From: Deltaproteobacteria bacterium
GTDB taxonomy: Bacteria; Desulfobacterota; Syntrophia; Syntrophales; UBA2185
Direction of reading: 5' to 3'
NCBI GenBank assembly: GCA_026388545.1
Contig: JAPLJS010000046.1
Span: 23,396-87,395 of the forward strand
DNA: 64,000 nt
Positions within the stretch are counted from its first letter, which is position 1. Each line of letters starts with the position of its first letter. Below are positions 14,701 through 64,000 of this stretch, in pieces. Below the pieces are notes generated by a model. The model worked only from the letters and a program-made list of their open reading frames with translations. It made no database searches and had not been told where the DNA came from. The position numbers and the translations under genes were made by a program.

Positions 14701-17700
14701 CTATCCGGGCAAGTGAATCGTAAAGACATAAGTAGGGTTCATTTACTGATGCCAACGCTCCTCCTATATGTCTTTCGGCTGCGTTTGCATCTTCAATGGC
14801 TTGAGGGAACTGTTCAAACTGATAATTGCCGAGAAGATTACAGAAATGTGTATACAAAGCAAATACTTGGTCATTCACTTGCTCCTGCGGCAGAATACAC
14901 TTTTCGTCAACACTTTTGAAAATTATCCGGTGTGAGGTTTCACTTCTCCCCAGTAATTTCAAGACAAGCCGGTGAAAAGGTTCAAAGAAGCGTAAAGGCG
15001 ACTCTTGTTTGAGCTGACGTACGGCATTACTGAATACGGTCATGTCACGCTCGACTTCCTCCAGTTGCCTGCCGACGAAGAATGAGCGGACACAGTAGGA
15101 GTGGATGCAACGAGACGCAAACTCTACGTCTCCGGTTTCCAGGCCGCTTTGATATCCCTCACGCAAAGGGGTTAATGTTTCCCAAATAGATTCCTTCCAA
15201 TGTCTTATGAAGGCATTAAATGCAAAAAGAGTCCTGGTTTTGAGTCTTGTGGCGTTGATCTGTTCCAGCATACGTGAGGCGAGCCTTCCGAAACGATAAC
15301 CGCCGTCAATATCTCCTGTTACTCCGCAGAGTATCGTGCCGTACGCAACATAGGCAAATGCAGACTCGGCAGCAGTGCCGTATCTTATAAATAAAGTGAT
15401 CCCTTTAAACGCTATCAATGGCATCAGGTTGGGAGCGGCAATATAAGTTGCAGATCCGATTTTTGCCAGGATGCGCATTGCGGCCAGCTTATGGGGGTCG
15501 GTCATAGCAGGAAGGTAAATCAAATCATCAATATGCTTTCCCGCCAAAGCCATCTTAGTCCTCAGCAATCCGAATAAGATATGTAGTTTATTGGGCCTTT
15601 GTGGAATCTTTACCCCCAATAGTTTAAGTATATAGAGCGCAATTTGCACAGCTTCCATCTGTTTGTTTTGAGCTATACAGGCCTGAATCTTGACCTCATA
15701 CACTTTCACTTCGTCTATCAATGTCTTGGCATTTTTTAGCACAGCCTCTGCCAAGCTCTCCATGGCCTCAAAGTTTCCGCTGAGATAGGCCGCTTCAGCT
15801 GCCTCGACGTACAGCGTCAAGGACAAATCATACTGTGTTTCCCATCCATCCCTTCTCAAAAGTTCAATGCCTGACTGCAAGTAGGAGAATGCCGGATCAT
15901 AAGCCGCAGAGGATTTTGCCTTCTGCCCAGCCAGCAGATTCAATTCAGCCCATTCCTCGCGAATGGTCTGATCTTGAATCAGTTCCCGTCCCTGGTTCAA
16001 TTGATTGACAATATCAAAGATCCGTGCATCGCGCTCAGAGGGTGATGCATTCCGCAGCAGAAGCTGGCCCACCTGCATGTGGATGGCCTGTACTTCTTCC
16101 CTGGAAATGAGCGAATAGAGTGCCTGATGTACCCGGTCATGCGCAAACTTATATTCGACGATAACTTCATCCGCCAACCCCTCCATCTCCAGTGATACAA
16201 ACTTATAGGTCTTGCTCAGCGGTAAGACCATCCCGGCAGTTAATGCCGGCCATAAATCAGCCGCTGTCTCACTTGGCGACTTTTTATACACATCCGCCAA
16301 TATCTTCAGGTCAAATTCATTGCCGATACAGGCCGCTAGTTTTAATGCCTGCTGTGTCTCCGAATGCAACTGCTGCACCTTGCCCGCAATCAAGTCGACT
16401 ACGTTATCCGTGATGCCCTGTGCCTGGATTTGTGCCAATTCCCACTGCCAGCTGCCGTGTTGAAAGTCAAACACAATGAGACCTTCATCATAAAGGTTTT
16501 TCAAGAACTCAAGCAGAAAGAAGGGGTTACCGCCGGTTCTCGCCAGCACCAATTCTGCCAATGGCGTGGCTTGGTCGATAGGGCAGTGTAGGGTATCGGT
16601 TATCATCCTGGTGACATTCAGTAAATCCAATGGTGCGAGGGTAATGGCATTTACCGTCAATCCGGATTTTTTAATCTCTTCCACCGTCTGCATGAGGGGA
16701 TGGGTCGGGCTTACATCATTATCACGGTACGATCCGACGAAGAACAGACATTTGCTTTCAGGAGTCATCAGGAGAAGCTCTATTAACTTCAATGACGCCA
16801 CATCGGCCCATTGCAGATCGTCGAGGAATATCACGAGGGGATGTGCAGGTTTTGTGAATACCCGGATAAAGTTTTGAAATACAAGACCAAAGCGGTTTTG
16901 CGCTTCTATCGGGGCCAGCGCAGGCACGGCAGGCTGTGGACCGATGATCAGCTCCACTTCAGGAATTACCTCAAGTATTACTCCTCCGTTTGGTCCCAGC
17001 GCCACCTGGAGCTTCTCGCGCCAATCCGTGATAGCCATTTCGCTTTCAGTTAAAAGCTGCCGGATAAGCGAACGAAACACCTGAATCAATGCTGAGTATG
17101 GGATGCTGAAATGTAACTGGTCAAACTTGCCGGAGATGAAGTAGCCGCGCCGGAGCGTCACCGGCTTGTAAATTTCCTGCACCAAGGCCGTCTTGCCAAT
17201 GCCGGCATAGCCCGAAATCAGCATCATTTCGGCAGGCCCTGCACTGATTCGCTCGAAAGCGGTAAGCAATGCCTCAATCTCTCGCTCTCGCCCGTACAAC
17301 TTCTGGGAAATCTGAAAGCGGTCAGAGACATCACGTTGTCCAAGCGGGAATGGCTCAATCTTCCCGGCGGTCTGCCACTGTTGAAGACATTTTTCCAGGT
17401 CGGCAAGAAGGCCGTGTGCAGATTGGTAGCGATCTTCGGCATCTTTAGCAAGAAGTTTTAAAACAAGATCAGAGACTGCCATGGGGATATCCGGCTTGAG
17501 TTCATGAGGGGCGGCAGGTTGCTTGGCGATGTGGCAGTGCACTAATTCCAATACATCGCCGGTCGGGAAAGGTATCTGTCCCGTCATCAATTCATAAAAT
17601 GTTGCTCCCAGCGAGTAAAAGTCCGTGCGATAGTCAACCGCCCTGTTCATACGCCCCGTCTGCTCCGGAGAGAGATACGCCAATGTGCCCTCCAACATGT

Positions 17701-18232
17701 GCGGGTTGCTGAAAGTTGGATTTTCCCTTGAGAGGGAGGTTGAAATGCCAAAGTCGATGATTTTGACCTGGCCGTTATTCTTGTTGAAAATGATATTAGA
17801 GGGGTTTATATTTTTATGAATGATTTGCCTCTGGTGGATCTGGGCGAGGGACTTGGTCACCTGGATGGCAAGGGGTAAGAATGTGGCCAGCCCGTTAGCC
17901 GGCAGAGTTGTCTCTCCGTTATTCATCCAACGATCCAACGAAATACCGCCGAAATCTTCCGAGACTATTACAAAGCTAAGATGATGTTTCTCTATACTGT
18001 AAGTAGCTACAACCCCGTCTACTGGATCTTTGGCGCAGGGCCCGGAATTCAAGCCGTGAGCGATTTCGTACTCCCGTTTGAATTGAGCGATTCGTTCCGG
18101 CAAAGGATACTCTTCTCTCAAGGTTTTAAGGATAACAGAAAGATTATCGGCCATCCGATAGGCACGAAAGACAAGAGAATTGTTGCTTTCATAAAGCGTT
18201 TCGCGAATTTTATAGCCTGAGATTGTGAGCAT
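11771..18232 (-). CDS. Multidomain sensor: protein-kinase-like, P-loop (AAA_16/STAND-type) ATPase, helical repeats, GAF, HisKA/HATPase_c, REC, HPt, unassigned C-terminal region
   Basis: 2153 aa. Kinase motifs VILKTL, IIHKNINPSN, DFG, SPE. Walker A GYAGIGKT (aa 341-348). GAF at about aa 1330-1480. H-box SHEIRTPLNAI (His1543, codon 13604-13606). GGTGLGLSICKRLVE. REC Asp1836 (12725-12727). HPt HTIRGVAGNL (His1988, 12269-12271). Confidence 0.92.
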   Translation of the reverse strand: MLTISGYKIRETLYESNNSLVFRAYRMADNLSVILKTLREEYPLPERIAQFKREYEIAHGLNSGPCAKDPVDGVVATYSIEKHHLSFVIVSEDFGGISLDRWMNNGETTLPANGLATFLPLAIQVTKSLAQIHQRQIIHKNINPSNIIFNKNNGQVKIIDFGISTSLSRENPTFSNPHMLEGTLAYLSPEQTGRMNRAVDYRTDFYSLGATFYELMTGQIPFPTGDVLELVHCHIAKQPAAPHELKPDIPMAVSDLVLKLLAKDAEDRYQSAHGLLADLEKCLQQWQTAGKIEPFPLGQRDVSDRFQISQKLYGREREIEALLTAFERISAGPAEMMLISGYAGIGKTALVQEIYKPVTLRRGYFISGKFDQLHFSIPYSALIQVFRSLIRQLLTESEMAITDWREKLQVALGPNGGVILEVIPEVELIIGPQPAVPALAPIEAQNRFGLVFQNFIRVFTKPAHPLVIFLDDLQWADVASLKLIELLLMTPESKCLFFVGSYRDNDVSPTHPLMQTVEEIKKSGLTVNAITLAPLDLLNVTRMITDTLHCPIDQATPLAELVLARTGGNPFFLLEFLKNLYDEGLIVFDFQHGSWQWELAQIQAQGITDNVVDLIAGKVQQLHSETQQALKLAACIGNEFDLKILADVYKKSPSETAADLWPALTAGMVLPLSKTYKFVSLEMEGLADEVIVEYKFAHDRVHQALYSLISREEVQAIHMQVGQLLLRNASPSERDARIFDIVNQLNQGRELIQDQTIREEWAELNLLAGQKAKSSAAYDPAFSYLQSGIELLRRDGWETQYDLSLTLYVEAAEAAYLSGNFEAMESLAEAVLKNAKTLIDEVKVYEVKIQACIAQNKQMEAVQIALYILKLLGVKIPQRPNKLHILFGLLRTKMALAGKHIDDLIYLPAMTDPHKLAAMRILAKIGSATYIAAPNLMPLIAFKGITLFIRYGTAAESAFAYVAYGTILCGVTGDIDGGYRFGRLASRMLEQINATRLKTRTLFAFNAFIRHWKESIWETLTPLREGYQSGLETGDVEFASRCIHSYCVRSFFVGRQLEEVERDMTVFSNAVRQLKQESPLRFFEPFHRLVLKLLGRSETSHRIIFKSVDEKCILPQEQVNDQVFALYTHFCNLLGNYQFEQFPQAIEDANAAERHIGGALASVNEPYLCLYDSLARIAVYGSSSRAEQKRILKKVSLNQKKLSKWAHHAPMNNMHKFTLVAAECARILGRHEEAGGYYDKAIALAHENEFLNDEALAYELAGKFYLARSQTKIAQGYLHDARYAYLRWGALAKVQDLEARYSEVLAQATAGRDNVTSKPAITFTTQQQIASAFDLNSVIKASQAISGEIVLNRLVDKLMSILIENAGAQRAFLVLEKNGRWSINEEVPVSIINYVSRTRETVVLADASHNGTFTLDPDILARKPKSIICMPLLHQGQLSGILYLENNLTTNAFTPERLEILHLLSGQIAISLTNAMLYDELEMRVQKRTAELSKTNILLKQEIADREKAQIELLQAKDAAEEAYRVAEAANRAKSTFLANVSHEIRTPLNAITGLTNLALETELSDKQHDYLHKIYVSSQNLLGIISDILDFSKIEAGKLDFDHKEFELESIMDHLYSMFSDRAAEKGIKLNFSNTGDVPSILVGDPLRLEQILINLINNAIKFTDTGDVTIMVCLEKMEAQTVRLRFAVRDTGIGIPQDSLKKIFDTFTQLDGSVTRKYGGTGLGLSICKRLVEVMGGEVWVESTPGRGSTFYFTADFTRRSDDEQKKKKKDVTQPELITSIIGARVLLVEDNIINQQVAKEILESAGLVVDVTNNGREAVETIRACDYDAVIMDVQMPVMSGYEATRVIRDDPRYTKLPIIAMTAHAMQGASEECLAAGMNDYVVKPINKGALFSVLNRWVRPRLHVWCDEPAAVCDEVNIQANDPGLPDTLPGIDIVSGLERLSGNRKLFAKLLKMFSRDYAGMTDEIKAALNRKDTETAVRLTHTIRGVAGNLSAKDLQRSASELEKGIKQQIPGKLDNLLETFEHFLTQVVESVKSFEYSGTEITEQVVKDLGDIKWAFNNPAALKDAIIRLEEESIPLWEIAKQRGFFDEISRFGLHVKAQGENYGLKHLEKFGDDLIAHVSSYDIENINLLLNSFPELVDKIKSLK

Positions 18233-23112: not shown

Positions 23113-24033
23113 ATGAAAGGAATAAAGATGCCCAATAATTTTTATACCTTCCTGATAATCCCCAAGAAAAAAAGTTCCACCAAGAAATTTACGATTTCGA
23201 GTAAACTTTTAAAAGGCATTGTATATTGCATTATAATTATCAGCCTGTCTTTTATGTATACATATTATGACTATATTAAAATAAAGAGGGATAAGAGTGA
23301 ACTGGATCGCTTTAAAAGACTAACGAAAGAACAAAATTTACAGATAGAGGGTTTAGTTGAAAAGGTAAATAATTTTGCCATGAAGATGGAGGAACTCAAT
23401 CAGCTCGATAAAAATGTTAGGGTGATGGCGCATCTTGAAGATAATCGCTATAAAGGACAGATGCTTGGTATTGGTGGATCGATAAGTGAAGAAACAAGAA
23501 TAAAATCAAGCGTCGATACCGATCAAAAGATGGTCATTGCGAAAATTCAACAGAATATCGATCAAATGACGAAAGACGCAACCGACCAGAAGAACAGTTT
23601 TCATGAGTTGCTTAAGTTTCTGAAAGAACGGAAATCCATAATTGCTGCTACACCATCAATTTGGCCTGTTCAGGGCTGGGTTACGTCGGAGTTTGGATAC
23701 AGAACATCACCACTGGGAGGAGCAAAGGAATTTCATAAAGGAATTGATATTGCAACGCGAGTGGGTCTACAGATAGTGGCCCCTGCTGATGGTATGGTTA
23801 CCGAGATAGCTTATGATCGAGATGTGGGACATATGATTAGGATAGATCATGGACACGGGGTGACCACCTGGTATGGTCATCTCCTGAAAAGTGCAATTCA
23901 ACAGGGAAGTATGGTAAAGAGGGGAGATCTGATCGGTTATGTTGGAAATTCCGGTAGGAGTACAGGTTCGCATCTCCACTACACCGTATTACTGAACGGT
24001 GTTCCTGTTAATCCGCGTAAGTATTTGAATTAG
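23113..24033 (+). CDS. M23-family (LytM-type) metallopeptidase with N-terminal TM segment and coiled coil
   Basis: 306 aa. HKGIDIA...GHLLK...GNSGRSTGSHLHY. Confidence 0.85.
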   Translation: MKGIKMPNNFYTFLIIPKKKSSTKKFTISSKLLKGIVYCIIIISLSFMYTYYDYIKIKRDKSELDRFKRLTKEQNLQIEGLVEKVNNFAMKMEELNQLDKNVRVMAHLEDNRYKGQMLGIGGSISEETRIKSSVDTDQKMVIAKIQQNIDQMTKDATDQKNSFHELLKFLKERKSIIAATPSIWPVQGWVTSEFGYRTSPLGGAKEFHKGIDIATRVGLQIVAPADGMVTEIAYDRDVGHMIRIDHGHGVTTWYGHLLKSAIQQGSMVKRGDLIGYVGNSGRSTGSHLHYTVLLNGVPVNPRKYLN

Positions 24034-51129: not shown

Positions 51130-52359
51130 ATGAACACTTCGTCCCTGGATAAATATGGTTGTTACGCCCTCCTCTTGCTTCTTAGTGTTAATTTCTTAAA
51201 TTATATCGACAGGCAGATTTTATATGCCGTATTTCCACTTATCAAAGACGATTTCGGACTGACGGATACTTCACTCGGCTTTCTGGGCAGTGCCTTCATG
51301 CTTTGTTATATGGTATCGGCTCCCGTACTCGGGTGGCTGGGAGACCGTATAAGCCGTGTGAAACTTGCCTCTGCCGGGTTGGTTGTCTGGAGTGTGGCCA
51401 CGTCACTTACGGGCATTGCTTCCCGCTATCATACGCTTCTTTTAGCAAGAGTATCGGTCGGGATAGGCGAAGCAAGCTTCAGTACGGTATCTCCGGGCCT
51501 TCTGGCCGACTACTTTCCAAAAGAGAAACGAGGACGAGTACTTTCACTTTTTTATCTTGCAATTCCTGTCGGGAGTGCATTTGGCTATATTTTAGGTGGA
51601 ATTCTTGGGCAAAAATTTGGCTGGCAAACAGCATTCCTTATGGTCGGAGTACCCGGAGTTCTTCTGGCTATTCCTTTATGGTTTCTTAACGAACCAAAAC
51701 GCGGCGGCAGTGAAGGAAAAGTTACGGGAGACTTGATGCAGTCAGGAGGCTACAGTTCTCTGTTTTCAAATCGTCCCTTTATTATCAATACCCTGGCTAT
51801 GACGGCAATGACATTTGCGATGGGAGGTCTGGCACAGTGGGTTCCTACGTATCTCTACCGCATTCATGAACTCGATTTGGTTACTGCGAATACTTATTTT
51901 GGCTGTATCACGGTACTTGCAGGGATAACCGGTACTCTGATTGGCGGTTGGCTGGGAGATTATTTTCAGAGAAAGACCCCGAAGGGGTACCTCTTAGTGT
52001 CCGGTTGGGGTTTTCTATTTGGGGCTCCAATGGCAGCTTATGCCCTCGTTACACCGACACTGAGCAATTGCCTTGCGGCAATATTTTTTGCCGAATTTTT
52101 CCTGTTTTTAAATACCGGTCCACTCAATACTGTCATAGTGAACGTGACGCATCCAGACGTACGAGCCAGGGCCTTTGCAGTAAACATTTTTATCATTCAT
52201 GCCCTTGGAGACGCCTTCTCACCCACCGTATTGGGGTGGTTGTCAGACCTCTGGGGGCTCAGGTATTCTCTCCTCATCACCCCTATTGCTATCATCGTAG
52301 CGTCTTTTTTCTGTTTTTTATGCGGCCGCTTTATTGGAAAGGATAATACGAAGATATGA
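51130..52359 (+). CDS. MFS transporter (Spinster-like)
   Basis: About 12 predicted TM helices. FLNYIDRQIL...GWLGDRISR motif. The internal ATG at 51130 is preferred. Confidence 0.85.
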   Translation: MNTSSLDKYGCYALLLLLSVNFLNYIDRQILYAVFPLIKDDFGLTDTSLGFLGSAFMLCYMVSAPVLGWLGDRISRVKLASAGLVVWSVATSLTGIASRYHTLLLARVSVGIGEASFSTVSPGLLADYFPKEKRGRVLSLFYLAIPVGSAFGYILGGILGQKFGWQTAFLMVGVPGVLLAIPLWFLNEPKRGGSEGKVTGDLMQSGGYSSLFSNRPFIINTLAMTAMTFAMGGLAQWVPTYLYRIHELDLVTANTYFGCITVLAGITGTLIGGWLGDYFQRKTPKGYLLVSGWGFLFGAPMAAYALVTPTLSNCLAAIFFAEFFLFLNTGPLNTVIVNVTHPDVRARAFAVNIFIIHALGDAFSPTVLGWLSDLWGLRYSLLITPIAIIVASFFCFLCGRFIGKDNTKI

Positions 52360-52368
52360 GCAGCGTAG

Positions 52369-53742
52369 CTATTGCAGGCGCCTTTTCATTATATCGTAAA
52401 GAACGTTCTCAATTAATTTTCTTATGATGTGTAAACGTTCCTCTGTCGAGGCCTCAAAGCGCAGAACTAAAACGGGCTGGGTATTGGATGAACGTACGAG
52501 ACCCCATCCATCACCGAAGGGGATTCTTACACCGTCGATATCGATAATTCTATAGTTTTTCCTGAAATAATTTTTGATCTCTTCAACCACCTTAAATTTA
52601 ATATGGTCTGGACAGTCTACCTTAATCTCAGGAGTGCTGAAGGTCGGAGGAACATCGGAAAGGATTTCACTGATTTTTTTACCTGAAGCGGATAGGATTT
52701 CCAGCAATCTTAGAGAAGCATAGATGGCATCGTCATAACCGAAATACCGGTCTGCAAAGAACATATGACCACTCATTTCACCTGCGAGAAGGGCTTTTTC
52801 CTCTTTCATTTTGCTCTTGATCAAAGAGTGGCCGGCTTTCCACATGATTGGTCTACCGCCATGTTTTTCAATATCGTCATAAAGCTTTTGCGAGCACTTA
52901 ACCTCACCGATAATGGCTGCACCAGGCGTTTTCTGAAGGATAAATCTGGAAAAAAATAAGAGGAGTTCATCTCCCCAGAGGATATCACCCCGGTCGGTTA
53001 TTACACCGATTCGATCCGCATCGCCATCGTAAGCAATGCCTATATCGGCTTTCTTCTCTTTAACGAGGCCAATCAATTCAGTGAGATTTTCGGGAATAGT
53101 CGGATCCGGGAAATGGTTAGGGAAGCGGCCATCCGGGTCGCAGTAAATATCAGTAACATGACAACCAAATCGTTTAAAAAGAGGGAGCGCAAAAATACCT
53201 CCCACACCATTTCCAGCGTCTACAACGATATTCAACCCTTCATTTATCTCAATGTTGTTAAACAAATAATCTTTATACGGTTTTGAAATGTCCGCGAAGC
53301 GGGAAGATCCTTTTCCGGCTAAATACTTGCCGCTTTCCATGATTTTCCTCAGCTCTTGAATATCCAGGCCATAGATGGTATCAGGCCCCACACATATCTT
53401 AAAACCGTTGAATTCGGGAGGATTATGACTTCCTGTCACCATCACACCGCCGTCTGCGTTAAAATGTCTTATGGAAAAATAAAGCATTGGGGTGGCGCAC
53501 AGACCGACATTAATGATATTTATCCCCGTTGAATTAATGCCTTTTCCGATTGAGTTGCAGTATTCGGGAGAACTGAGTCGGCAATCCATGCCAAAAGTCA
53601 TGGTCTTAACTCCGCGAGGAATCGCGTAAGTTCCGATCGATCTTCCAAGATTGTAAACAAAGTCAAAGTTAAAATCTTTGTCAACGATGCCCCGGATGTC
53701 ATACTCTCTGAAAACTTCAGGGTTTATTACAGTGCCGATCAT
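52369..53742 (-). CDS. Phosphomannomutase/phosphoglucomutase
   Basis: 457 aa. Active-site TGSHNPPEFNGFK, metal site YDGDADR, and GEMSGH. Confidence 0.93.
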   Translation of the reverse strand: MIGTVINPEVFREYDIRGIVDKDFNFDFVYNLGRSIGTYAIPRGVKTMTFGMDCRLSSPEYCNSIGKGINSTGINIINVGLCATPMLYFSIRHFNADGGVMVTGSHNPPEFNGFKICVGPDTIYGLDIQELRKIMESGKYLAGKGSSRFADISKPYKDYLFNNIEINEGLNIVVDAGNGVGGIFALPLFKRFGCHVTDIYCDPDGRFPNHFPDPTIPENLTELIGLVKEKKADIGIAYDGDADRIGVITDRGDILWGDELLLFFSRFILQKTPGAAIIGEVKCSQKLYDDIEKHGGRPIMWKAGHSLIKSKMKEEKALLAGEMSGHMFFADRYFGYDDAIYASLRLLEILSASGKKISEILSDVPPTFSTPEIKVDCPDHIKFKVVEEIKNYFRKNYRIIDIDGVRIPFGDGWGLVRSSNTQPVLVLRFEASTEERLHIIRKLIENVLYDIMKRRLQ

Positions 53743-54788
53743 TATGAACCGGAAAACTCCTTCAAGTCGACATGCTTTTTAATCATTTCTTCAATGAGAA
53801 GCATCTTTTCGGTATCATCTTTCTGGAGTAAAGGTTCAATGCAATCGACCTGTTTTGCAATCTGGTATGTATCCGGCGATACAAGAAGAAGAGGGATTTT
53901 GAGAGCTGATGCTTTTGAGATGAGGTCCGGGGAAGGTTCGATATTACATGTGAGTATAATAGCCGCTGTACTGCTTTCCAGAGCGGCCGAAATCATATCA
54001 TTGCGGTCACCACTGGTAATAACGACTTTGTTTTCTTCATGAAAGATAGGACTTTGTACTGCGGCACGGGCGGACATGGAGCCTATGATAATATTCTTTA
54101 CCGGGCGATTCAGAAATGATTCACCCGTTATAATTCTTGCAAACAGACGGTCAGCCAGGAAATTTACGGTAAAGTGGGACAATTCCTCATAATACGGGAT
54201 TACCCCGAGTACTTTAATATTTAACTGTTCTATCTTGGGAAGGTGGACATTGTTGAAGTCTTCCAGGTTAGGTACTTTATTAATAATAATTCCTTTGAAA
54301 TTGACTGTACCAAAATTAACGTGGTTTTTTAAAAAGATGATGTCGTCGATGATTGTTTCTTCTTTTCCGCTGATCACAACCAATAGTTCGGCAGCTAATG
54401 ATTTTGCTAAAGATATGGCATCAAGGTGGACAGAAATACCGTACGGTATTTCCTTTCCGCCTTCGATAAACAAGATATCCTTATCTTTGCCGGCGCTTTC
54501 TTGCAGCTCAAGAACCTTTTGTGTTATGGTTTCTTTGTCAAATATATAGAGAAGCTTGGCATGATCAAAGCCGATACTCATTTCCGCTGGGTCTTCCCCC
54601 AGACCGAATATGCTATTAATCAGTGCGGTATCATAATCCCACAGTCTTTTTTTACGATAGAGCAGCCTGTCTCCAAAAGGTTTTATATAGCCGAATTTTT
54701 TTTGTAATGCCTTTGACAAACCGATTATTATACTTGTTTTGCCTGCATTTTGGTGCGTGGATGTTATTACCAGCCTGTGCATTATCAT
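53742..54788 (-). CDS. Pta N-terminal-like protein: P-loop (BioD/CobQ-type) domain plus DRTGG domain
   Basis: 348 aa. STHQNAGKTS P-loop and the VVITSGDRNDMISAAL DRTGG motif. No phosphotransacetylase catalytic domain. The stop overlaps the phosphomannomutase ATG by 1 nt. Confidence 0.78.
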   Translation of the reverse strand: MIMHRLVITSTHQNAGKTSIIIGLSKALQKKFGYIKPFGDRLLYRKKRLWDYDTALINSIFGLGEDPAEMSIGFDHAKLLYIFDKETITQKVLELQESAGKDKDILFIEGGKEIPYGISVHLDAISLAKSLAAELLVVISGKEETIIDDIIFLKNHVNFGTVNFKGIIINKVPNLEDFNNVHLPKIEQLNIKVLGVIPYYEELSHFTVNFLADRLFARIITGESFLNRPVKNIIIGSMSARAAVQSPIFHEENKVVITSGDRNDMISAALESSTAAIILTCNIEPSPDLISKASALKIPLLLVSPDTYQIAKQVDCIEPLLQKDDTEKMLLIEEMIKKHVDLKEFSGS

Positions 54789-54799
54789 ACCTCTCCGTT

Positions 54800-56725
54800 T
54801 TATAATTCTCGTCTGCTCTCAGGAGTCTTAAAAGCCATTTTCAAATGATACACGCCAACCTCTGTTTGCCTTGTGATGTCAAATCCGCCCTGCTCAAATA
54901 CCTGGAGCATGGGTTTGTTTTCAACAAGAACTTCAGCCGTAAAGCCAAGTAAACCTTCTCTCTTTGCAAGATAGGTCATGTAGGATAATATTTCACTCCC
55001 GATGCCTCTGTTTTGATAATCATCCCTTACGGCAACGGCAACTTCCGCCGTGTGTGTGGCTTCGTCAACACCATACTGGCCCAGCCCCACGATGATTTCA
55101 TTTTCCTGACTTCCGACAATCGCCAAGATGGAAATTTCTTTTGTATAGTCAATAATAACAAAATCCTGTAAACGTTCGTGGGGTATGTCCGTCCGCCACG
55201 ACATAAATCTACGGTGAAGGCTTCTGTCTGACAGAGCATAGAAAAAATCTTTCAACAAGGGTTCATCCGTAATTTTAACGGGCCTCAAAAAGAGTTGAAA
55301 TCCTGTCTTTGAAGTTCTGTATGTTTCCAAAGTTTCAGGGTATCTGCCTCTCTCGCCGGGTATATATGCCTGATCCTGATAAATCAGCCCTCTCTTTTTC
55401 GCCTCTTCAATCAGCCAGGGACGGAATTTTGGATGAGCAATGGAGATCAATGCCATGGCCCGCTCCCGGATATTTTTCCCGTGCAGATATGCGATTCCGT
55501 GCTCGGTAACAACATAACGGACATCAGCTCGATTGAGGGTAACGCCGGCTGATGCGCTCAGGGTCGGCACAATTCTGGATAAGGTCTCATTTACCGCTGT
55601 TGATTTCATTGCCAGGATCGTTTTGCCGTTTCTTGCAAGGAGCGCTCCTCTCATGAAGTCATGAAAACCGCCTATCCCGCTGTAAAACATGCTGCCTATC
55701 GATTCCGATGTGGCTTGTCCGGTAAGATCGATTTCAAGGGCGCTGTTAATAGCGACGATGTTGTCATTTCGGGCGATAATCATTGGATTGTTTGTGTAAT
55801 CTACGGTTCGGAATATAATAGAGGGGTTGTCATGAATATATTGGTACGTTTCACTTTTAGCCATGCAGAAGGTGGCTACCGTTTTTCCACGGTTCAAGGT
55901 TTTTTTTGAGTTGTCTATTACACCAGCCTTGATTAAGTTTACAATACCCTCGGTCAGAAGCTCCGTGTGAATGCCTAAATTCTTTTTATTATAGAGATGA
56001 GCCATAATGGCATTGGGGATACTCCCATATCCTACCTGCAGCGTGTCAGCGTCCTGAATAAGACGCGAAACATAAATTCCTATCCGCTGCAACGATAGTG
56101 TCTTCTCTTCAGAAAATGATCTCTGGATTTCAAGGAGTGGCGCGTCATGGGGTATAATGAAATTCACATCTTTAATATGTATAAAGCCGTCCCCATGAGT
56201 TCGAGGCATATAAGAGTTGACCTGGGCGATAACCAGAGAGGCTTTTTCCGTTGCTGTCTTGACCATGTCGACACTGACGCCGAGGCTCAGAAATCCATGC
56301 TCATCGGGAAAACTGGTCTGAATGAGCGCTATGTCTATGGGCACAATACCGCTGTTGATCAATGCCGGAATGTCTGAAAGAGATATAGGGGTGTAGTCTG
56401 CCGCTCCCTTATTGACGTTTTCTCTTGTATTATTGCCGATGAAAAAGGAATTATGGCGAAAATTGCTCTTGAACTTTTCATGAGTGTAGGGAGCTATGCC
56501 AAGAGAGTAGATTTGTATGATCTCCGCATCAAAAAAAGCCTTGGGGTTGGATTCCACATATTTTGTCATGGCGCTTATGAGATACTGCGGTTCACCGCAA
56601 CCTGATGTGACGAATATATGTTGACCGCGACGAATATGTTTGAATATCTCGTTCTCACTGGCAAACTTTTCCGGATAAATCTTTTTCCATTCTTCAAGCG
56701 ACGTCGCACTATTTGCAAAACTCAT
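54800..56725 (-). CDS. Fusion protein: acetyl-CoA hydrolase/transferase family domain plus C-terminal Pat-type GNAT acetyltransferase
   Basis: 641 aa. The N-terminal two thirds show CoA-transferase family features (TSGCGEPQYL, IDLTGQATSES). The C-terminus has LRPVKITDEPLLKDFFYALSDRSLHRRF...IDYTKEISILA...YQNRGIGSEIL. Confidence 0.85.
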   Translation of the reverse strand: MSFANSATSLEEWKKIYPEKFASENEIFKHIRRGQHIFVTSGCGEPQYLISAMTKYVESNPKAFFDAEIIQIYSLGIAPYTHEKFKSNFRHNSFFIGNNTRENVNKGAADYTPISLSDIPALINSGIVPIDIALIQTSFPDEHGFLSLGVSVDMVKTATEKASLVIAQVNSYMPRTHGDGFIHIKDVNFIIPHDAPLLEIQRSFSEEKTLSLQRIGIYVSRLIQDADTLQVGYGSIPNAIMAHLYNKKNLGIHTELLTEGIVNLIKAGVIDNSKKTLNRGKTVATFCMAKSETYQYIHDNPSIIFRTVDYTNNPMIIARNDNIVAINSALEIDLTGQATSESIGSMFYSGIGGFHDFMRGALLARNGKTILAMKSTAVNETLSRIVPTLSASAGVTLNRADVRYVVTEHGIAYLHGKNIRERAMALISIAHPKFRPWLIEEAKKRGLIYQDQAYIPGERGRYPETLETYRTSKTGFQLFLRPVKITDEPLLKDFFYALSDRSLHRRFMSWRTDIPHERLQDFVIIDYTKEISILAIVGSQENEIIVGLGQYGVDEATHTAEVAVAVRDDYQNRGIGSEILSYMTYLAKREGLLGFTAEVLVENKPMLQVFEQGGFDITRQTEVGVYHLKMAFKTPESRREL

Positions 56726-56878
56726 AAAGGTCCAACCTTTTTATGTAAAGAAGAGGTCTTTTCCGATAAAGGAATGTAATATTTTTAACGTCTCAAACTA
56801 ATCGATAAGTTATATCTCTGTCAAGAAAAGAATGCCGGAAGAGTATAAAACCAAGAATTTTTCTCATGATTTATGTTC

Positions 56879-56969
56879 ATCTCCGAAAAAGTTAATAGCA
56901 TCTTCAGGATTAGCTGTCAGTTGAAAGCTTTCAGCTGAATCCTTTCTTGCAACTAAATGGGAGAAGAAC
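56879..56969 (+). repeat. Repeat family B, copy 2
   Basis: Same orientation as 19822-19913. It shares ATCTCCGAAAAAGTT, TTCAGGATTAGCTG, CTTTCAGCTGAATCC and TTGCAACTA, and has a 7-nt insertion in the hairpin loop. Confidence 0.8.
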
Positions 56970-56984
56970 CAAAAATACAGATAC

Positions 56985-57647
56985 TTATAGCAGAACGCCG
57001 ATAATATCTGCTGCTTTGTTAACAATAAGATCTGCCCCCGCATTTAACAGGTCGCTTGTTGTTGAATATCCTGATAAGACACCTACTGTGAATGTACCTG
57101 CATCTTTCCCCATTTTGATATCCATAGGATGATCACCGACCATGTATGTGAATTCCGGCGCCGCATCAAGTGATTGTAAGGCTGTCATGAGGTGATCAGG
57201 GTGGGGTTTGACGTTGTTGGTGAGTTCTCTTGTTATGACAGTATCGCAATATTCGAGGATATCAGGGAACACCCGCATGACTGCCGATTTACAGTTTCTG
57301 GTTACAACTCCCGCTTTAATGTTACATTTTTTCAGCTCGATGAGCATATCTCGTGTACCGTCTATGAGTTCCCCTTTGCTTGCCGCTTCGATTTCGATAT
57401 GTGCAATCAAGTTACTCGCTTGCTGAAAAAAGAAAGTTTCTTTTCCAGGATGTTTACGGGAAATTAATGTCTTCCCTGCATTGATCATCTCGAGAACGAA
57501 TAGATCACTGAGTCCGTCCAGGGGGATCTGGTAAGATTCGATGAGACTAATAACAGACTTTCTCATCTGGGGGAAATTGATATTCAGTTTTGCCAATGTA
57601 CCGTCGAAGTCAAAAACGATGGCTCTTATCGATATTCCAACTTTCAA
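56985..57647 (-). CDS. HAD-superfamily hydrolase (phosphoglycolate phosphatase-like)
   Basis: 220 aa. FDFDGTL motif I, VVTRN, GDHPMDI. The TTG start overlaps the upstream stop (TTGA). Confidence 0.85.
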   Translation of the reverse strand: MKVGISIRAIVFDFDGTLAKLNINFPQMRKSVISLIESYQIPLDGLSDLFVLEMINAGKTLISRKHPGKETFFFQQASNLIAHIEIEAASKGELIDGTRDMLIELKKCNIKAGVVTRNCKSAVMRVFPDILEYCDTVITRELTNNVKPHPDHLMTALQSLDAAPEFTYMVGDHPMDIKMGKDAGTFTVGVLSGYSTTSDLLNAGADLIVNKAADIIGVLL

Positions 57648-58792
57648 ACTTTGTACGTTTCCTTTAGATATTTTTCAATACGATTTATGCCTTCCTCGAT
57701 GTTTTCAAGTGAATTAGCGTATGAAAATCTCAAATACCCTTCACAGTTTTTACCAAAGTCAATACCCGGAGTTACACCAACCCTGGCCTTTTCGAGAATC
57801 TCAAAGGCCATTTTATATGAGTCATTGGAAAACGACTTAATATTTCCGAGGACGTAAAACGCACCGGTGGGCTCCACTTTGATACCTAGCCCTATTTCGC
57901 GAAGTCGTTTGATTAAAAACATTCTCCTTTCATTATAAATGTTTCTCATACGGATTACTTCACCGCCCGCTTCCCGCAGGGCAGTTACACCACCCCATTG
58001 AACGAATGAATTGGCAGATATGAAAAGGTTCTGCAACAACTTCTGCATTGGCCTGATAGTGTATTTTGGTGCGATTAAATATCCAAGCCGCCATCCTGTC
58101 ATTGCGTATGTTTTTGAAAAGCCATTGAATACAAAGGCGTTGTCTGTAAACTCAAGAATACTGTGTGCCTTATCTTCGTAAACAAGACCGTGGTATATTT
58201 CATCGGAGATTACGGGTACGTCCAGAGATGCAATTTCTGCCATTCTTTCTGCACTGAGAAGGTTGCCTGTCGGATTGGAGGGTGAGTTGATCATAATACC
58301 TTTTGTACGCTTGGTTATTTTCTCCTTTATTGCCTCTGAAGTATATTGGAAACCTTCATCTTCATAAACGTTTACGCTAACAGGGATTCCTTCATAGAAT
58401 CTTATAAAGTTGGGATAACAGGCATAATGGGGGTCTGAAATGATGACCTCGTCACCCCTTTCGAGTATTGCAGCGAAGAGAATCAACATAGCGGGAGAGG
58501 TACCGGAAGTAACCAAAACTTGATCCGGTGAAATAGTCACATTATATTGATCAAAGTAGTGTTCACAGATTGCCTCTCTCAGTTCGAGAAGTCCGAGACT
58601 GTTTGTATAATGGGTTTTCCCATCTCGCATCGCTCGGCAACACGCTTCCCTGATGCACTCCGGGGTATCAAAATCCGGCTCACCGACTTCAAGATGAATG
58701 ATATCTTCTCCTCTCCTTTGCATCTCCTGGGCTTTTTCAAGGACGTCCATGACGATAAAAGGAGGAATTTCTGATGCTCTTTTCGTAATCAT
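57644..58792 (-). CDS. Class I/II PLP aminotransferase
   Basis: GEPDFDTP, NSPSNPTGN, NGFSKTYAMTGWRLGY. The internal ATG at 58792 (MITKRASEIPPF) is preferred over the TTG at 58900. Confidence 0.88.
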   Translation of the reverse strand: MITKRASEIPPFIVMDVLEKAQEMQRRGEDIIHLEVGEPDFDTPECIREACCRAMRDGKTHYTNSLGLLELREAICEHYFDQYNVTISPDQVLVTSGTSPAMLILFAAILERGDEVIISDPHYACYPNFIRFYEGIPVSVNVYEDEGFQYTSEAIKEKITKRTKGIMINSPSNPTGNLLSAERMAEIASLDVPVISDEIYHGLVYEDKAHSILEFTDNAFVFNGFSKTYAMTGWRLGYLIAPKYTIRPMQKLLQNLFISANSFVQWGGVTALREAGGEVIRMRNIYNERRMFLIKRLREIGLGIKVEPTGAFYVLGNIKSFSNDSYKMAFEILEKARVGVTPGIDFGKNCEGYLRFSYANSLENIEEGINRIEKYLKETYKV

Positions 58793-58921: not shown

Positions 58922-59797
58922 CTATTTTTGATGACCTGTTAAGTATTCAGGCCCAAGGGTTCTTTTTATGATTCTTTTTTTATGCAAATCAGGAATTTCG
59001 AAATTAAGGACGATTTTCAGGAAGTTTACAATGATAGTGAAGGTAGCCCCCCAGAGGATCTCTTCTTTGCCCTGATTGTCACGGGTGATAAGGCAGGGGA
59101 ATTCTCTTGGATTCTGTTTATTTGTATTTAACTGGTTGGAAGTCTCAATATGATAAAGCCCGTAGTTACTTTCATCGAAAAAATTCATCAGGGGAATTTC
59201 TACAATAGTGTCAACCTCTTGATTGGGATGGAAATGCCATTCCCTTTTTACAAAACCTACAAGGGGGAAGATCGTCCGCCTAAACAAATGGAGTGAGTAA
59301 GAGGGAAGGGGACCTAAAAAAAGAATCTCCCAAGGTCTCAGCCCAGTTTCTTCCCAAGCTTCCCTCAGGGCATTGGTCAGAAAAAGGGTAATTATCCTGG
59401 AGGTGTCGATTTCCCTCATCTGAACGTATTTCAGCGCGTCACCCTGCAAAGGTGAGATGAGTCTGCTCGTAATGAAAGGCCTTAGGAGGGGATCTAAAAA
59501 ATTGTGTAACAAACCACCGGGGCAACTGAGGTCACCGGGTTGTGTTACTTTTGAGGAACGTTTAATGAGCTGGAAAAAGAATTCACCTTTATTATTATTT
59601 CCCGGCATTGATTCAATGCTTTTGAAATATAAAAGCAGAAAAACACCTGCAGCAAAATGAACATTCTCAGTTTTACGGGTCGTTTGAACAAAACGCATCT
59701 TTTCCGTATAATCAATGGAACACCTACCGAGACTTTTTACGACTAATGTGAGAAACTGATCCTTGTTCGACAGACATTCGGTATCTATGGCACTCAT
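58922..59797 (-). CDS. Nudix-like hydrolase, CoA pyrophosphatase-like, with an atypical split Nudix box
   Basis: 291 aa. ...QLIKRSSKVTQPGDLSCPGG..., about 45 aa, then ...ALREAWEETGL. The REx2EExG core is present. The ATG overlaps the stop of the upstream hydrolase (ATGA). Confidence 0.65.
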   Translation of the reverse strand: MSAIDTECLSNKDQFLTLVVKSLGRCSIDYTEKMRFVQTTRKTENVHFAAGVFLLLYFKSIESMPGNNNKGEFFFQLIKRSSKVTQPGDLSCPGGLLHNFLDPLLRPFITSRLISPLQGDALKYVQMREIDTSRIITLFLTNALREAWEETGLRPWEILFLGPLPSYSLHLFRRTIFPLVGFVKREWHFHPNQEVDTIVEIPLMNFFDESNYGLYHIETSNQLNTNKQNPREFPCLITRDNQGKEEILWGATFTIIVNFLKIVLNFEIPDLHKKRIIKRTLGPEYLTGHQK

Positions 59798-60774
59798 CCT
59801 GTTTTTTCCAACCGGGAAAATATTTGCTCAATTATCCTTTCATACCAGCATTCGAAAGGGAAAAAATCGATGAATCCGCAATGTCCTCCGTAGGTCTGAA
59901 GAGAAAGCCGCAGATAGCTGTTTTCCTTTAACCCATAAACGTCATGAATTGGCACTATCGGGTCATCTTCAGAGGCAATGATGGTAACAGGTATGGAAAG
60001 ATCGTCAAACACATTGTCCCGTAAAGTATATTGATTAAAGTATTCCCTGTAATTGCGAAACTCCGGATAGTAAGGCATGATAGCCTCTGTAAGGTCCATA
60101 CACGTTTTTATTTTCATGATATCAGAAAAATCATATTTTTCAGGGAAAAGCGACTGCTTTTTTATTAAAGATCTTTTCCATTTATTAAGAAAGTAATATC
60201 GATAGATGGGAAGAATTTCATCGATGGATAACGTGGCTTTATAGGGATCCAGGGCAGGACTGATGGCGATGATATGCTTAAGATTTGGGATTTTTGATAC
60301 AGAGTGTTTGAGTGCTATGCGAAGCGCATAATTTCCACCGAGGGAAAAGCCAATGACGTAATATGGCTTGTCATTGGATAAACGAGAGATAGTGCGAACG
60401 GCATTAAATGTCTCGTCTATGAGAGCTCCATGAAAAAGACCTTCATTGAGATGATGAGAGTTACCATGGTCTCTCAGGTTAAGACGGAATATATCATAAC
60501 CTTTATCGTAAAAATATTTTCCCGTGGACACGACGTATGTCGAATCAGAACTCCCTTCCCATCCATGAAGCAATGTGATGAGGCCTCTTCCATTTTTTAA
60601 AGGTTGTGTGGAGTAATATCCGAGAAGACGGACGCCATCTTCTGCATCAATTATCATTTCTCTTGCGAGGTCAACCATAGGATGTCTACCCCGGTATCGC
60701 ATTTTTAAGCTGCCCAAAATCGTCTGCAAGTGAGGATTTTCGGCCCAGGGTTTGGGAATAAATTTATCCTGCAT
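59794..60774 (-). CDS. Alpha/beta hydrolase, YheT/COG0429-like
   Basis: FIPKPWAENPHLQTI N-terminus, HGWEGSS, nucleophile elbow GFSLGGN. An ATG at 60774 or a TTG at 60780 could be the start. Confidence 0.85.
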   Translation of the reverse strand: MQDKFIPKPWAENPHLQTILGSLKMRYRGRHPMVDLAREMIIDAEDGVRLLGYYSTQPLKNGRGLITLLHGWEGSSDSTYVVSTGKYFYDKGYDIFRLNLRDHGNSHHLNEGLFHGALIDETFNAVRTISRLSNDKPYYVIGFSLGGNYALRIALKHSVSKIPNLKHIIAISPALDPYKATLSIDEILPIYRYYFLNKWKRSLIKKQSLFPEKYDFSDIMKIKTCMDLTEAIMPYYPEFRNYREYFNQYTLRDNVFDDLSIPVTIIASEDDPIVPIHDVYGLKENSYLRLSLQTYGGHCGFIDFFPFECWYERIIEQIFSRLEKTG

Positions 60775-60855
60775 GTGCAATTGATCGATTATGCATGGAG
60801 ATTCTGATTTTAATATAAAGTTTCAGACCCACTTTGAGACGCTTTTAGTGTGGAT

Positions 60856-62981: not shown

Positions 62982-64000
62982 CTATTTGGAGTTTCTTATT
63001 CGCTCGTTATCAATTATTTTTTTTGTAGTCAAATCGGTTACTGATTCAGGGTGCTCAGAAAACGGGATTGTAAGATGGTAAACTCCAGATTCAACGATAG
63101 CCTGGATTGGATAGCCCAATTTTTCATAGACTTTCATCATGGCCTTGTTGTCGGCAAGGACGTCAGCGGTAAAGCCTTTAATGCTCTGTTCGCGTGCAGA
63201 AGTAATAAGCATGTCGAGGATGAACTTCGCAATGCCTCTTCCCTGATATTTTTCGTCAACGACGAAGGCGGTGTCGGCAAAGGGACGATCCTGGAGGAGA
63301 ACATAACGTCCCTCTGCAATGAGGCGCTCAATTCCTCCTTCCCTGATAAGACCGACTATGGACATACGGCGTCTGTAATCCACATTGACATATTCCTGCA
63401 TTTTGACATGGGGCATGACTTTTATGGGAGTGAAATAGCGGTAAAAAACCGCTTTATCGGAAAATCTATAGAATAACCTGCGCATTTCCTCTTCATCTGA
63501 AGGCTTTATTGCACGGAAGTGGACGCTCAGTCCATCCTTGAAAATGTGGGTGCAGGCAATCCTGTCCGGATAGAGCTGTCCCGATTCTTCTAAATAGATC
63601 TGATCAGGGTAGAGTATATTCGCCGCTATGGCCTTCCGGACAAGCTCGGCTCGGTCGTCGGGATGAGAAATTTCGATCAATGCCTGTGCTCGTTCACGTA
63701 CTGTTCTGCCGAACATGGATGCAATGCCGTACTCCGTGATAATCAGATCTAAGGATTCACGATTTGTGAACTGGTTCGGGAAATCATCTGCAGAAAGGAG
63801 GATGTTAGACTCTCCCTGCAGATTCCGGCTTGGAAGGGCGAAGATTGTCCTTCCGCCACGCGAGTGTTCCGCGCCTGCGAAGAACTCCTGGGCTTGGCCC
63901 GGTCCCGGCGTTACATTACCTTTACCAATGGGAAGGGCAATGCCTCCCGTAAGGTCAACTTTTCTTGCAGGAAGAATGGCAATCATCTTGTTATTCAAGC
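62982..64000 (-). CDS. Second acetyl-CoA hydrolase/transferase::GNAT fusion (C-terminal part); the gene runs off the right edge
   Basis: VDLTGG...ITEYGIASMFGRTVRERAQALIEISHP aligns with IDLTGQ...VTEHGIAYLHGKNIRERAMALISIAHP of 54800..56725. The GNAT part has IKPSDEEEMRRLFYRFSDKAVFYRYF...YQGRGIAKFIL. The reading frame is open to position 64000. Confidence 0.8.
   Translation of the reverse strand, partial: LNNKMIAILPARKVDLTGGIALPIGKGNVTPGPGQAQEFFAGAEHSRGGRTIFALPSRNLQGESNILLSADDFPNQFTNRESLDLIITEYGIASMFGRTVRERAQALIEISHPDDRAELVRKAIAANILYPDQIYLEESGQLYPDRIACTHIFKDGLSVHFRAIKPSDEEEMRRLFYRFSDKAVFYRYFTPIKVMPHVKMQEYVNVDYRRRMSIVGLIREGGIERLIAEGRYVLLQDRPFADTAFVVDEKYQGRGIAKFILDMLITSAREQSIKGFTADVLADNKAMMKVYEKLGYPIQAIVESGVYHLTIPFSEHPESVTDLTTKKIIDNERIRNSK

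Follow-up and report, generated by a model that had tools for sequence, protein, structure and literature searches.

A CoA-transferase joined to a Pat-type acetyltransferase module in an uncultured Syntrophales bacterium, and the acetate-related gene cassette of its relatives

Why would a protein carry an enzyme fold of acyl-CoA metabolism at one end and, at the other, a domain of the kind with which Pat acetylates lysines? The question is raised by a stretch of 64,000 nucleotides from an uncultured member of the Syntrophales (positions 23,396 to 87,395 of contig JAPLJS010000046.1, assembly GCA_026388545.1), the whole of which is referred to below as the window. An initial annotation, made from the sequence alone, described in it a 641-amino-acid protein (54800..56725, minus strand), in which an acetyl-CoA hydrolase/CoA-transferase body is joined to a C-terminal GNAT domain. 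Eleven nucleotides downstream lies the gene for a 348-amino-acid protein (53742..54788, minus strand) made only of a P-loop module and a DRTGG module, called PtaN here after its likeness to the N-terminus of long phosphotransacetylases (Pta). Its stop codon overlaps the ATG of a phosphohexomutase gene. The open reading frames, their coordinates, the 11-nucleotide gap, and the overlap all proved to be as the annotation had them.

The fusion represents a large, unstudied family, not a categorically new one: Pat's complete C-terminal module is present, joined to another acyl-CoA enzyme fold. The conserved unit to which it belongs is a cassette of three genes encoding the fusion, an ADP-forming acyl-CoA synthetase (ACD), and PtaN, and the pair of genes in the window is a derived remnant from which the ACD has been lost. 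The cassette probably tunes the enzymes that convert acetyl-CoA to acetate in anaerobes.

The fusion protein and its two domains

The fusion is genuine, not an artefact of assembly, since it is on record from NCBI at 100% identity and in JGI and ENA entries at 100% (rounded) and has hundreds of orthologues of the same length. Its database names are automatic only ('acyl-CoA hydrolase/GNAT superfamily N-acetyltransferase'). The architecture of a CoA-transferase body with a C-terminal GNAT was borne out by Pfam, NCBIfam, phmmer, and Foldseek. Pfam recognizes AcetylCoA_hydro at amino acids 14-194 (2.9e-47), AcetylCoA_hyd_C at 292-442 (4.5e-61), and GNAT at 478-621 (about 1e-8 to 1e-9), and an AlphaFold2 (AF2) model built with 72 family members in the alignment has a pLDDT of 92.3 and a pTM of 0.89. 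Searches of the PDB by fold (Foldseek) and by phmmer found no entry covering both domains, and neither the fusion nor PtaN reaches the cut-off of any curated NCBIfam model.

The C-terminal part follows Pat from the linker onward. The GNAT domain itself (amino acids 476-632; 54830..55300, minus strand) contains RPVKITDE, R506, A560-E561, the string Q571-N-R-G-I-G576, and N603, and it is preceded by a Pat-type inter-domain linker (amino acids 446-475; 55301..55390, minus strand) whose YPETLE aligns with 'YPHQLEE' at positions 710-716 of PatZ. Amino acids 446-632 align end to end with positions 710-878 of E. coli PatZ (E 3.5e-16), and the alignment takes in the linker YP..LE, RP..(E)DE, AE(F/V)A, and QNRGIG. 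The last of these (amino acids 571-576) conforms to the acetyl-CoA motif Q/R-x-x-G-x-G/A. The AE(F/V)A motif, AEFA in PatZ and AEVA in Streptomyces lividans PatA, is what we take to be the site of Pat's catalytic glutamate; E561, which aligns with it (codon 55043..55045, minus strand, checked), is the predicted catalytic residue of the fusion. Among NCBIfam models, the best match is that of mycobacterial Pat, NF058543 (2e-19; 69.5 bits, against a whole-protein cut-off of 460 bits). By fold, the GNAT is closest to that of S. lividans PatA in 4u5y (target TM 0.93), where the Pat domain is in complex with the C-terminal domain of the acetyl-CoA synthetase Acs, and 4nxy was matched as well; by sequence, PatA (3.6e-16) and PatZ are equally near, and no solved GNAT is nearer. 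On the strength of model, alignment, and fold, the earlier assignment of the domain to the Pat type stands.

What sets the fusion apart is the rest of the protein. Pat enzymes of types I and II are defined by a regulatory domain that resembles NDP-forming acyl-CoA synthetases, but the N-terminal 445 amino acids of the fusion are AcetylCoA_hydro plus AcetylCoA_hyd_C, and it therefore falls outside both types. With Pat/PatZ/YfiQ of Salmonella and E. coli (type I; 9it0, 9isq), it shares the linker and GNAT module at the C-terminus, and in both the N-terminus is a large domain whose origin lies in an enzyme acting on acetyl-CoA and acetate. In Pat, however, that domain is built of CoA-binding, succinyl-CoA-ligase, and ATP-grasp parts, a fold unrelated to the class I CoA-transferase found here, and PatZ is about 886 amino acids long, against 641. 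Moreover, Pat's domain is without the catalytic His (PMC8556138), whereas the fusion keeps its N-terminal catalytic residues.

The N-terminal domain (amino acids 12-445; 55391..56692, minus strand) belongs, according to phmmer and Foldseek, to the 4-hydroxybutyrate / butyryl-CoA:acetate family of class I CoA-transferases. The nearest solved relatives are 4-hydroxybutyrate CoA-transferases (3eh7 and 9vag, both at about 1e-113 by phmmer against the PDB, and AbfT, 3gk7) and RipA of Yersinia. The corresponding part of the AF2 model matches 2oas, 3gk7, and RipA at a target TM of 0.93-0.95, so that the two-domain alpha/beta fold of the AbfT/Cat2/RipA subfamily is present. Identity amounts to 35-42% with AbfT, RipA, and butyryl-CoA:acetate enzymes and to 37-42% with the characterized 4-hydroxybutyrate/butyryl CoA-transferases. 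The domain scores 263 bits with TIGR03948, against a cut-off of 675 bits. Class I CoA-transferases bind acyl-CoA and go through a glutamyl-CoA thioester. The predicted nucleophile is E255 in the motif HTE (codon 55961..55963, minus strand, checked), which aligns with residue 238 of AbfT (3gk7), presumably the catalytic glutamate of that enzyme. DLTGQ is also present, as is the oxyanion-hole motif GxGG, in the form GIGGF (amino acids 350-354; 55664..55678, minus strand; alignment and codon check), with F for the Q of the GGQ of the known enzymes. These differ further in being stand-alone proteins of about 430-450 amino acids without a GNAT.

Within the clade to which the window's fusion belongs, E255 is found in 69 of 74 members and GxGG in 66-70 of 74. 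Mean identity there is 60% for the transferase and 57% for the GNAT, and conservation is as tight in the transferase site as in the GNAT. Judged by these residues, the window's copy is probably still an enzyme, and since both the catalytic Glu and the oxyanion motif are conserved in its clade, an active CoA-transferase, which the initial annotation had counted among the outcomes that would speak against its proposal, has to be reckoned with. The initial annotation had put a different acyl-CoA-binding fold in the position of Pat's ACD-like domain. It was right as to the fold, that of a CoA-transferase, but an obviously dead sensor is not what is found here, as the catalytic Glu and, save for the change of Q to F, the oxyanion motif are conserved.

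The constant domain of the family

Which of the two domains does the family hold constant? A full HMMER scan of representatives of 50%-identity clusters gave about 70 full-length fusion clusters, extending down to 30% identity, and motifs were counted in 72 fusion family clusters and, for comparison, in 43 stand-alone CoA-transferases. The GNAT is nearly invariant in the 72 clusters: R481 is found in 67, D487 in 69, R506 in 67, G574 in 66, and N603 in 69, while E561 is matched by E in 57 and by D in 10. The nucleophile of the transferase is Glu in only 42 of the 72, as against 36 of the 43 stand-alone relatives; of the remaining fusion clusters, 14 have Asp, and the rest have Gln, Phe, Gly, Tyr, or others. 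GxGG is likewise degenerate in many of the fusion clusters. All told, degeneration of the transferase active site affects about 40% of the family, while the motifs of the GNAT hold. Since the nucleophile is so often lost and the GNAT so rarely altered, the effector that stays constant is the GNAT. The transferase fold can evidently do its part for it without catalysis, much as an inactive ACD-like domain serves in Pat (PMC8556138).

The window itself carries an instance. A second, paralogous CoA-transferase::GNAT fusion, recognized by Pfam, lies 6 kb upstream of the first (62982..64000, minus strand), its N-terminus cut off by the end of the window. The two fusions share 33% identity. A complete counterpart occurs in a related locus (L001, 2053-3945), with 76% identity between the two genomes, and there HTY stands for HTE, AFYSGS for QVGYGS, and APGQ for GIGG, the motifs of the GNAT being kept.

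Two longer relatives, P0168 (1013 amino acids, L085) and P0182 (955 amino acids, L084), consist of CoA-transferase, GNAT, and a C-terminal domain of the histone-deacetylase family. From their domain content, they would be fusions of writer and eraser in one polypeptide. In both, the transferase nucleophile is gone (HTD and HSG); the genomic contexts of L084 and L085 were uninformative. Two others, P0128 (967 amino acids) and P0130 (960 amino acids), have an N-terminal extension of about 340 amino acids with 4Fe-4S cluster motifs before the CoA-transferase::GNAT body, and these may represent a redox-sensing variant. The idea that one of the relatives of 960-1013 amino acids might be a Rosetta-stone fusion with a DRTGG domain was rejected, their extra parts being histone-deacetylase or 4Fe-4S domains.

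The spread of the family was assessed by a pattern search with one genome per species, which gave at least 595 loci. The comparisons of loci below concern the best 80 of these at least 595, which are 58-90% identical to the fusion over the C-terminal 241 amino acids; open reading frames were called in 83 related loci. The genome bins among the best 80 are labeled Syntrophales, Nitrospirota, Thermotogota, Bipolaricaulota, Dehalococcoidia, Leptospirales, Neomarinimicrobiota, Zixibacteria, and Bacillota among the bacteria, and Thermoplasmatota, Methanotrichaceae, Hodarchaeota, and Woesearchaeota among the archaea. Such high identity across domains of life points to horizontal spread among anaerobes.

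The cassette and the remnant in the window

The initial annotation saw the fusion and PtaN as partners. PtaN does recur, in 32 of the 80 loci and across phyla, but about 30 of those have its gene on the same strand as the fusion and at a fixed distance of 2.1 kb downstream. The gene between the two encodes an ACD of roughly 710 amino acids with the Pfam domains CoA_binding, Succ_CoA_lig, Ligase_CoA_2, and ATP-grasp_5. None of the 29 full-length cassette ACDs has lost either of the two catalytic His motifs, and overlaps of stop and start codons with the neighboring genes are frequent. Examples are L022 (8798-13896) and L014 (8831-13924), within a range from L009 to L075 that covers bacterial and archaeal phyla. 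Synteny between fusion and DRTGG gene is therefore conserved, as had been supposed, but not primarily as a partnership of two genes, since the ACD intervenes.

Clustering the neighbors de novo over the 83 loci led to the same arrangement. [quoted passage not shown] These four are the only recurrent neighbor families tied to acetyl-CoA/acetate metabolism; the other small clusters are lineage-specific Syntrophales genes or unrelated families, sensor kinases for example. The stand-alone CoA-transferase is a protein of 449 amino acids whose gene shares the strand of the fusion and comes immediately upstream of it (L070 7450-8799, L045, L059, L037, and others). The best solved relative of a cassette ACD (L022, 10720-12855) is the ADP-forming 4-hydroxybutyrate-CoA ligase 8wzu (4.7e-150). 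That ACD and transferase both have 4-hydroxybutyrate enzymes as relatives may reflect a C4-hydroxyacid substrate in common, or it may reflect merely which structures happened to be solved.

The succession of parts in the cassette, GNAT and then ACD, is that of type II Pat, spread over two genes. PatA of S. lividans (4nxy, 4u5y) differs in that its GNAT is N-terminal and is followed by an ACD-like domain in the same chain, while in the cassette the GNAT is C-terminal and a separate gene for an active ACD follows. The order may be a clue to the origin of Pat-type enzymes.

What became of the ACD in the window? Only 11 nucleotides separate fusion and PtaN, and tblastn found no ACD anywhere in the 64 kb. 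In a neighbor-joining tree, the clade of the window is nested inside clades that bear the cassette. Within the window's clade, the genes run ACD-PtaN-fusion in L007 and fusion-PtaN in the window, L004, and L001/L002, and only the fusion is present in L003, L005, L006, and L008. The nesting, the order in L007, and the absence of an ACD from the window together argue that the ACD was lost in this lineage. PtaN is not decaying in what is left, since its divergence is the same with an ACD in cis as without (57% vs 58% identity, at about 72% identity of the fusion).

PtaN was identified by open reading frame, Pfam, NCBIfam, and Foldseek. The gap upstream contains the ribosome-binding site GGAGAGG, the homologues are 346 amino acids long, and the spacing from the ribosome-binding site suits the second ATG, at 54782, which is probably the true start. 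Pfam finds AAA_26, the BioD-like P-loop module, at amino acids 5-204 (5.6e-22) and DRTGG at 211-314 (4e-22), and the match to PRK05632 (long phosphate acetyltransferase; 1.2e-34) is confined to positions 2-367 of 708, in agreement with the description of the protein as the N-terminal part of a long Pta and nothing more. PtaN shares AAA_26 and DRTGG with the N-terminus of class II Pta (E. coli and Salmonella; 7t85), with DVU3031, and with AF_1212, and all are associated in their genomes with enzymes that lead from acetyl-CoA to acetate. It is not itself a Pta, however, because the chain stops after DRTGG, without the C-terminal PTA_PTB domain of class II phosphotransacetylases, and it also differs from these in an invariant Walker-A Lys-Thr and in having ACD, not Pta, as its partner enzyme.

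The Walker-A-like AGKT (54735..54746, minus strand) is invariant in 34 orthologues, and a segment GYxKPxGDRLxYxKKRxWDYD and a TSGDR motif are conserved along with it. The AF2 model of PtaN, made from a shallow alignment (pLDDT 71.6), is good for assigning the fold, not for detail; Foldseek matches it to dethiobiotin synthetases (BioD), to ATPases of the MinD/HypB type, to AF1212 (2ioj), and to the N-terminal domain of E. coli Pta (7t85). Amino acids 37-51, 70-81, and 112-119, which take in the most conserved segments (GDRLLYRKKRLWDYD, SIGFDH), are those modeled worst (pLDDT below 50), as would fit loops of the model that serve as interfaces with a ligand or partner. All PtaN homologues retrieved are stand-alone and uncharacterized, under the names 'BioD-like phosphotransacetylase family protein' or 'DRTGG domain-containing protein' in their sources. 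DVU3031, a DRTGG protein, sits in the por-pta-ack region of D. vulgaris (PMC4481167), and in A. fulgidus, AF_1212 adjoins the ACD AF_1211, to judge from the locus tags. Since in these organisms DRTGG proteins adjoin acetate-forming enzymes, with no such fusion, PtaN looks like a general partner, acting in trans, of the enzymes that turn acetyl-CoA into acetate and not like a partner dedicated to the GNAT fusion.

The other genes near the fusion belong to its lineage. The phosphohexomutase, a phosphogluco/phosphomannomutase of 457 amino acids (52369..53742, minus strand), had been put forward as a candidate substrate of the acetyltransferase, but it is a neighbor in close Syntrophales loci only, and the proposal is not upheld. 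It was rejected as a conserved partner along with the HAD phosphatase, aminotransferase, NUDIX-like, and alpha/beta hydrolase genes, all of which are found only in the close Syntrophales loci L001-L008. The NUDIX-like protein (291 amino acids; 58922-59797, minus strand) has a weak match to NUDIX / CoA-pyrophosphatase (PRK10707, 7.5e-8), and its gene overlaps by 4 nucleotides that of a YheT-like alpha/beta hydrolase (59794-60780, minus strand). The pair accompanies the fusion in close Syntrophales loci, even in L003, which is without aminotransferase, HAD phosphatase, and PtaN, and may point to a tie with CoA metabolism that is peculiar to this lineage. A scan of 52000-57700 for promoters and terminators gave no signal exceeding shuffled controls. 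Elsewhere in the window, and unrelated to the fusion, are a very large open reading frame (2153 amino acids; 11771-18232, minus strand) and, following it, two response-regulator-like open reading frames.

Possible roles of the fusion

The reading favored here, on which we would place about half of our confidence, is that the fusion is a Pat-like lysine acetyl(acyl)transferase with a CoA-transferase as its acyl-CoA-binding regulatory domain and that it acts on the acetate/acyl-CoA node. Pat offers the precedent: binding of acetyl-CoA to its large regulatory domain is required for the activity of the GNAT and helps to shape the substrate pocket (PMC8556138; 10.1101/2024.11.12.623305). By analogy, the transferase domain would bind acyl-CoA, and in the window's clade it would probably turn it over as well, by way of a glutamyl-CoA intermediate at E255, coupling the acyl-CoA/acetate pool to the activity of the GNAT or to its supply of donor. 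The GNAT would then acylate lysines on enzymes of the node, whether ACDs, AMP-forming acyl-CoA synthetases, or CoA-transferases. PtaN may be a regulatory subunit that binds a nucleotide or metabolite, primarily a partner of ACD and acting in trans in the window's organism. A cultured relative, Syntrophus aciditrophicus, carries nine genes for ACDs and lacks Pta/Ack (PMC4992975). Hints that the substrate is a protein come from the Acs gene next to the fusion in 3 loci and from the existence of fusions with a histone-deacetylase domain.

Several observations weigh against this reading. The neighbor-joining tree is a simple one, without support values. About half of the loci, 42 of the 80 in which the downstream sequence is covered, have neither ACD nor PtaN nearby, and no cassette was seen at three family members more distant. 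The fusions with a deacetylase domain do not prove a protein substrate, because the histone-deacetylase family includes amidohydrolases of small molecules (acetylpolyamines). The conservation of the transferase site in the window's clade is at least as compatible with a functioning enzyme of metabolism as with a sensor. Finally, we infer the substrate of the GNAT, and with it the function of the family, from comparisons of sequence and structure.

The metabolic enzyme just mentioned is the strongest competitor, though a somewhat unlikely one. The fusion would be primarily a CoA-transferase that formed an ATP-conserving couple with the ACD of the ancestral cassette (acyl-CoA + acetate -> acid + acetyl-CoA; acetyl-CoA + ADP + Pi -> acetate + ATP + CoA), the GNAT being only a feedback device that acetylates the protein itself or the ACD and no general regulator in the manner of Pat. 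Cycles of CoA-transferase and synthetase are an established route to ATP. In keeping with such a couple, the window's clade shows strong conservation of DLTGQ and GxGG as well as of the catalytic Glu, the domain is close in identity and fold to characterized 4-hydroxybutyrate/butyryl CoA-transferases (the 37-42% and target TM of 0.93-0.95 given above), and in about 30 loci the gene of the fusion runs, with an overlap of stop and start codon, straight into that of an intact ACD. The hosts, too, are fermenters and syntrophs, and the cultured relative S. aciditrophicus does without Pta/Ack (PMC4992975). Against it speaks the loss of the nucleophile, with the GNAT kept, in about 40% of the family's clusters, in the nearby paralogue, and in both deacetylase fusions. 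The separate CoA-transferase upstream in 7 loci suggests that the fused copy is not the metabolic workhorse, and the window's lineage retained the fusion after its ACD had gone.

It is conceivable, although unlikely, that an active transferase is mechanistically coupled to the GNAT, as part of a self-contained and horizontally mobile homeostat for acyl-CoA and acetate that also comprises the ACD and the nucleotide-binding PtaN. The donor might then be made or edited on the spot, so that whichever acyl-CoA/acid is abundant would end up on lysines, perhaps as butyryl, crotonyl, glutaryl, or 4-hydroxybutyryl groups. Alternatively, the covalent glutamyl-CoA state might act as the switch. If this were true, the fusion would be a sixth type of prokaryotic lysine acyltransferase, with an enzymatically active sensor, and ADP-forming acyl-CoA synthetases would have in it their first known regulator.

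The model of the initial annotation taken literally, fusion and PtaN as a dedicated protein acylation module that responds to acyl-CoA and acetyl-phosphate, with PtaN the direct partner of the GNAT, now seems distinctly improbable. The two genes are indeed only 11 nucleotides apart, and the window, L004, and L001/L002 preserve the pair where no ACD accompanies it, with no change in the rate at which PtaN diverges. Yet PtaN comes directly after the ACD, not after the fusion, in 30 loci; the close relatives L003, L005, L006, and L008 have lost PtaN and kept the fusion; and the DRTGG proteins DVU3031 of D. vulgaris (PMC4481167) and AF_1212 of A. fulgidus (next to AF_1211, by the locus tags) stand beside acetate-forming enzymes that have no such fusion. 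Among the long relatives inspected, none is a fused PtaN-GNAT protein. As for acetyl-phosphate, nothing in the analysis indicates that it is bound or sensed.

Very improbable is a biosynthetic cluster in which the neighboring aminotransferase, HAD phosphatase, and phosphohexomutase make a small molecule for the GNAT to N-acylate, with the CoA-transferase supplying the acyl-CoA: these genes are tightly packed on one strand, GNATs often acetylate small amines, and the histone-deacetylase family has its acetylpolyamine amidohydrolases, but the neighbors occur in close Syntrophales relatives only and in no other phylum, L003 lacks the aminotransferase and the phosphatase, and the GNAT and linker are specifically of the Pat type, with a fold that matches that of a Pat GNAT bound to a protein substrate (4u5y).

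A Pat-like acyltransferase working on the acetate node would have a parallel in AcuA-AcuB-AcuC of Bacillus, where an acetyltransferase, a trans-acting regulator, and a deacetylase control AcsA. There as in the cassette, a GNAT writer and a separate small regulator are encoded beside the controlled enzyme, and an eraser of the histone-deacetylase type occurs in some relatives of the fusion. The parts are different, however, AcuA being a single-domain GNAT and AcuB a CBS/ACT protein, with no CoA-transferase, ACD, or DRTGG involved.

The literature searches found no paper on the CoA-transferase::GNAT architecture or on the pair of PtaN and ACD. Prokaryotic lysine acetyltransferases have been divided by regulatory domain into five types, none with a CoA-transferase (PMC8556138), and a structure-based survey in a preprint on PatZ (10.1101/2024.11.12.623305) neither included a CoA-transferase regulatory domain nor looked for one. 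With the family absent from review and survey alike, no PDB entry spanning both domains, and no NCBIfam model at its cut-off, the supposition that the architecture has no characterized member holds.

The hosts of the family give the cassette its interest. They include syntrophs, acetoclastic methanogens (Methanotrichaceae), Thermoplasmatota, and bins labeled as Asgard and DPANN archaea, and in these organisms, the flux through acetate and acetyl-CoA sets the energy yield. We know of no writer enzyme for lysine acylation in such organisms, and to our knowledge, the regulation of ADP-forming acetyl-CoA synthetases is essentially unknown. Heavy lysine acylation has been reported in S. aciditrophicus (PMC8942843). 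The cassette of fusion, ACD, and PtaN is a concrete and testable candidate for the regulation of ADP-forming acetyl-CoA synthetases, and the fusion with an intact site and the paralogue with a dead one, side by side in one region, offer a ready comparison for the conversion of an enzyme into an allosteric sensor.

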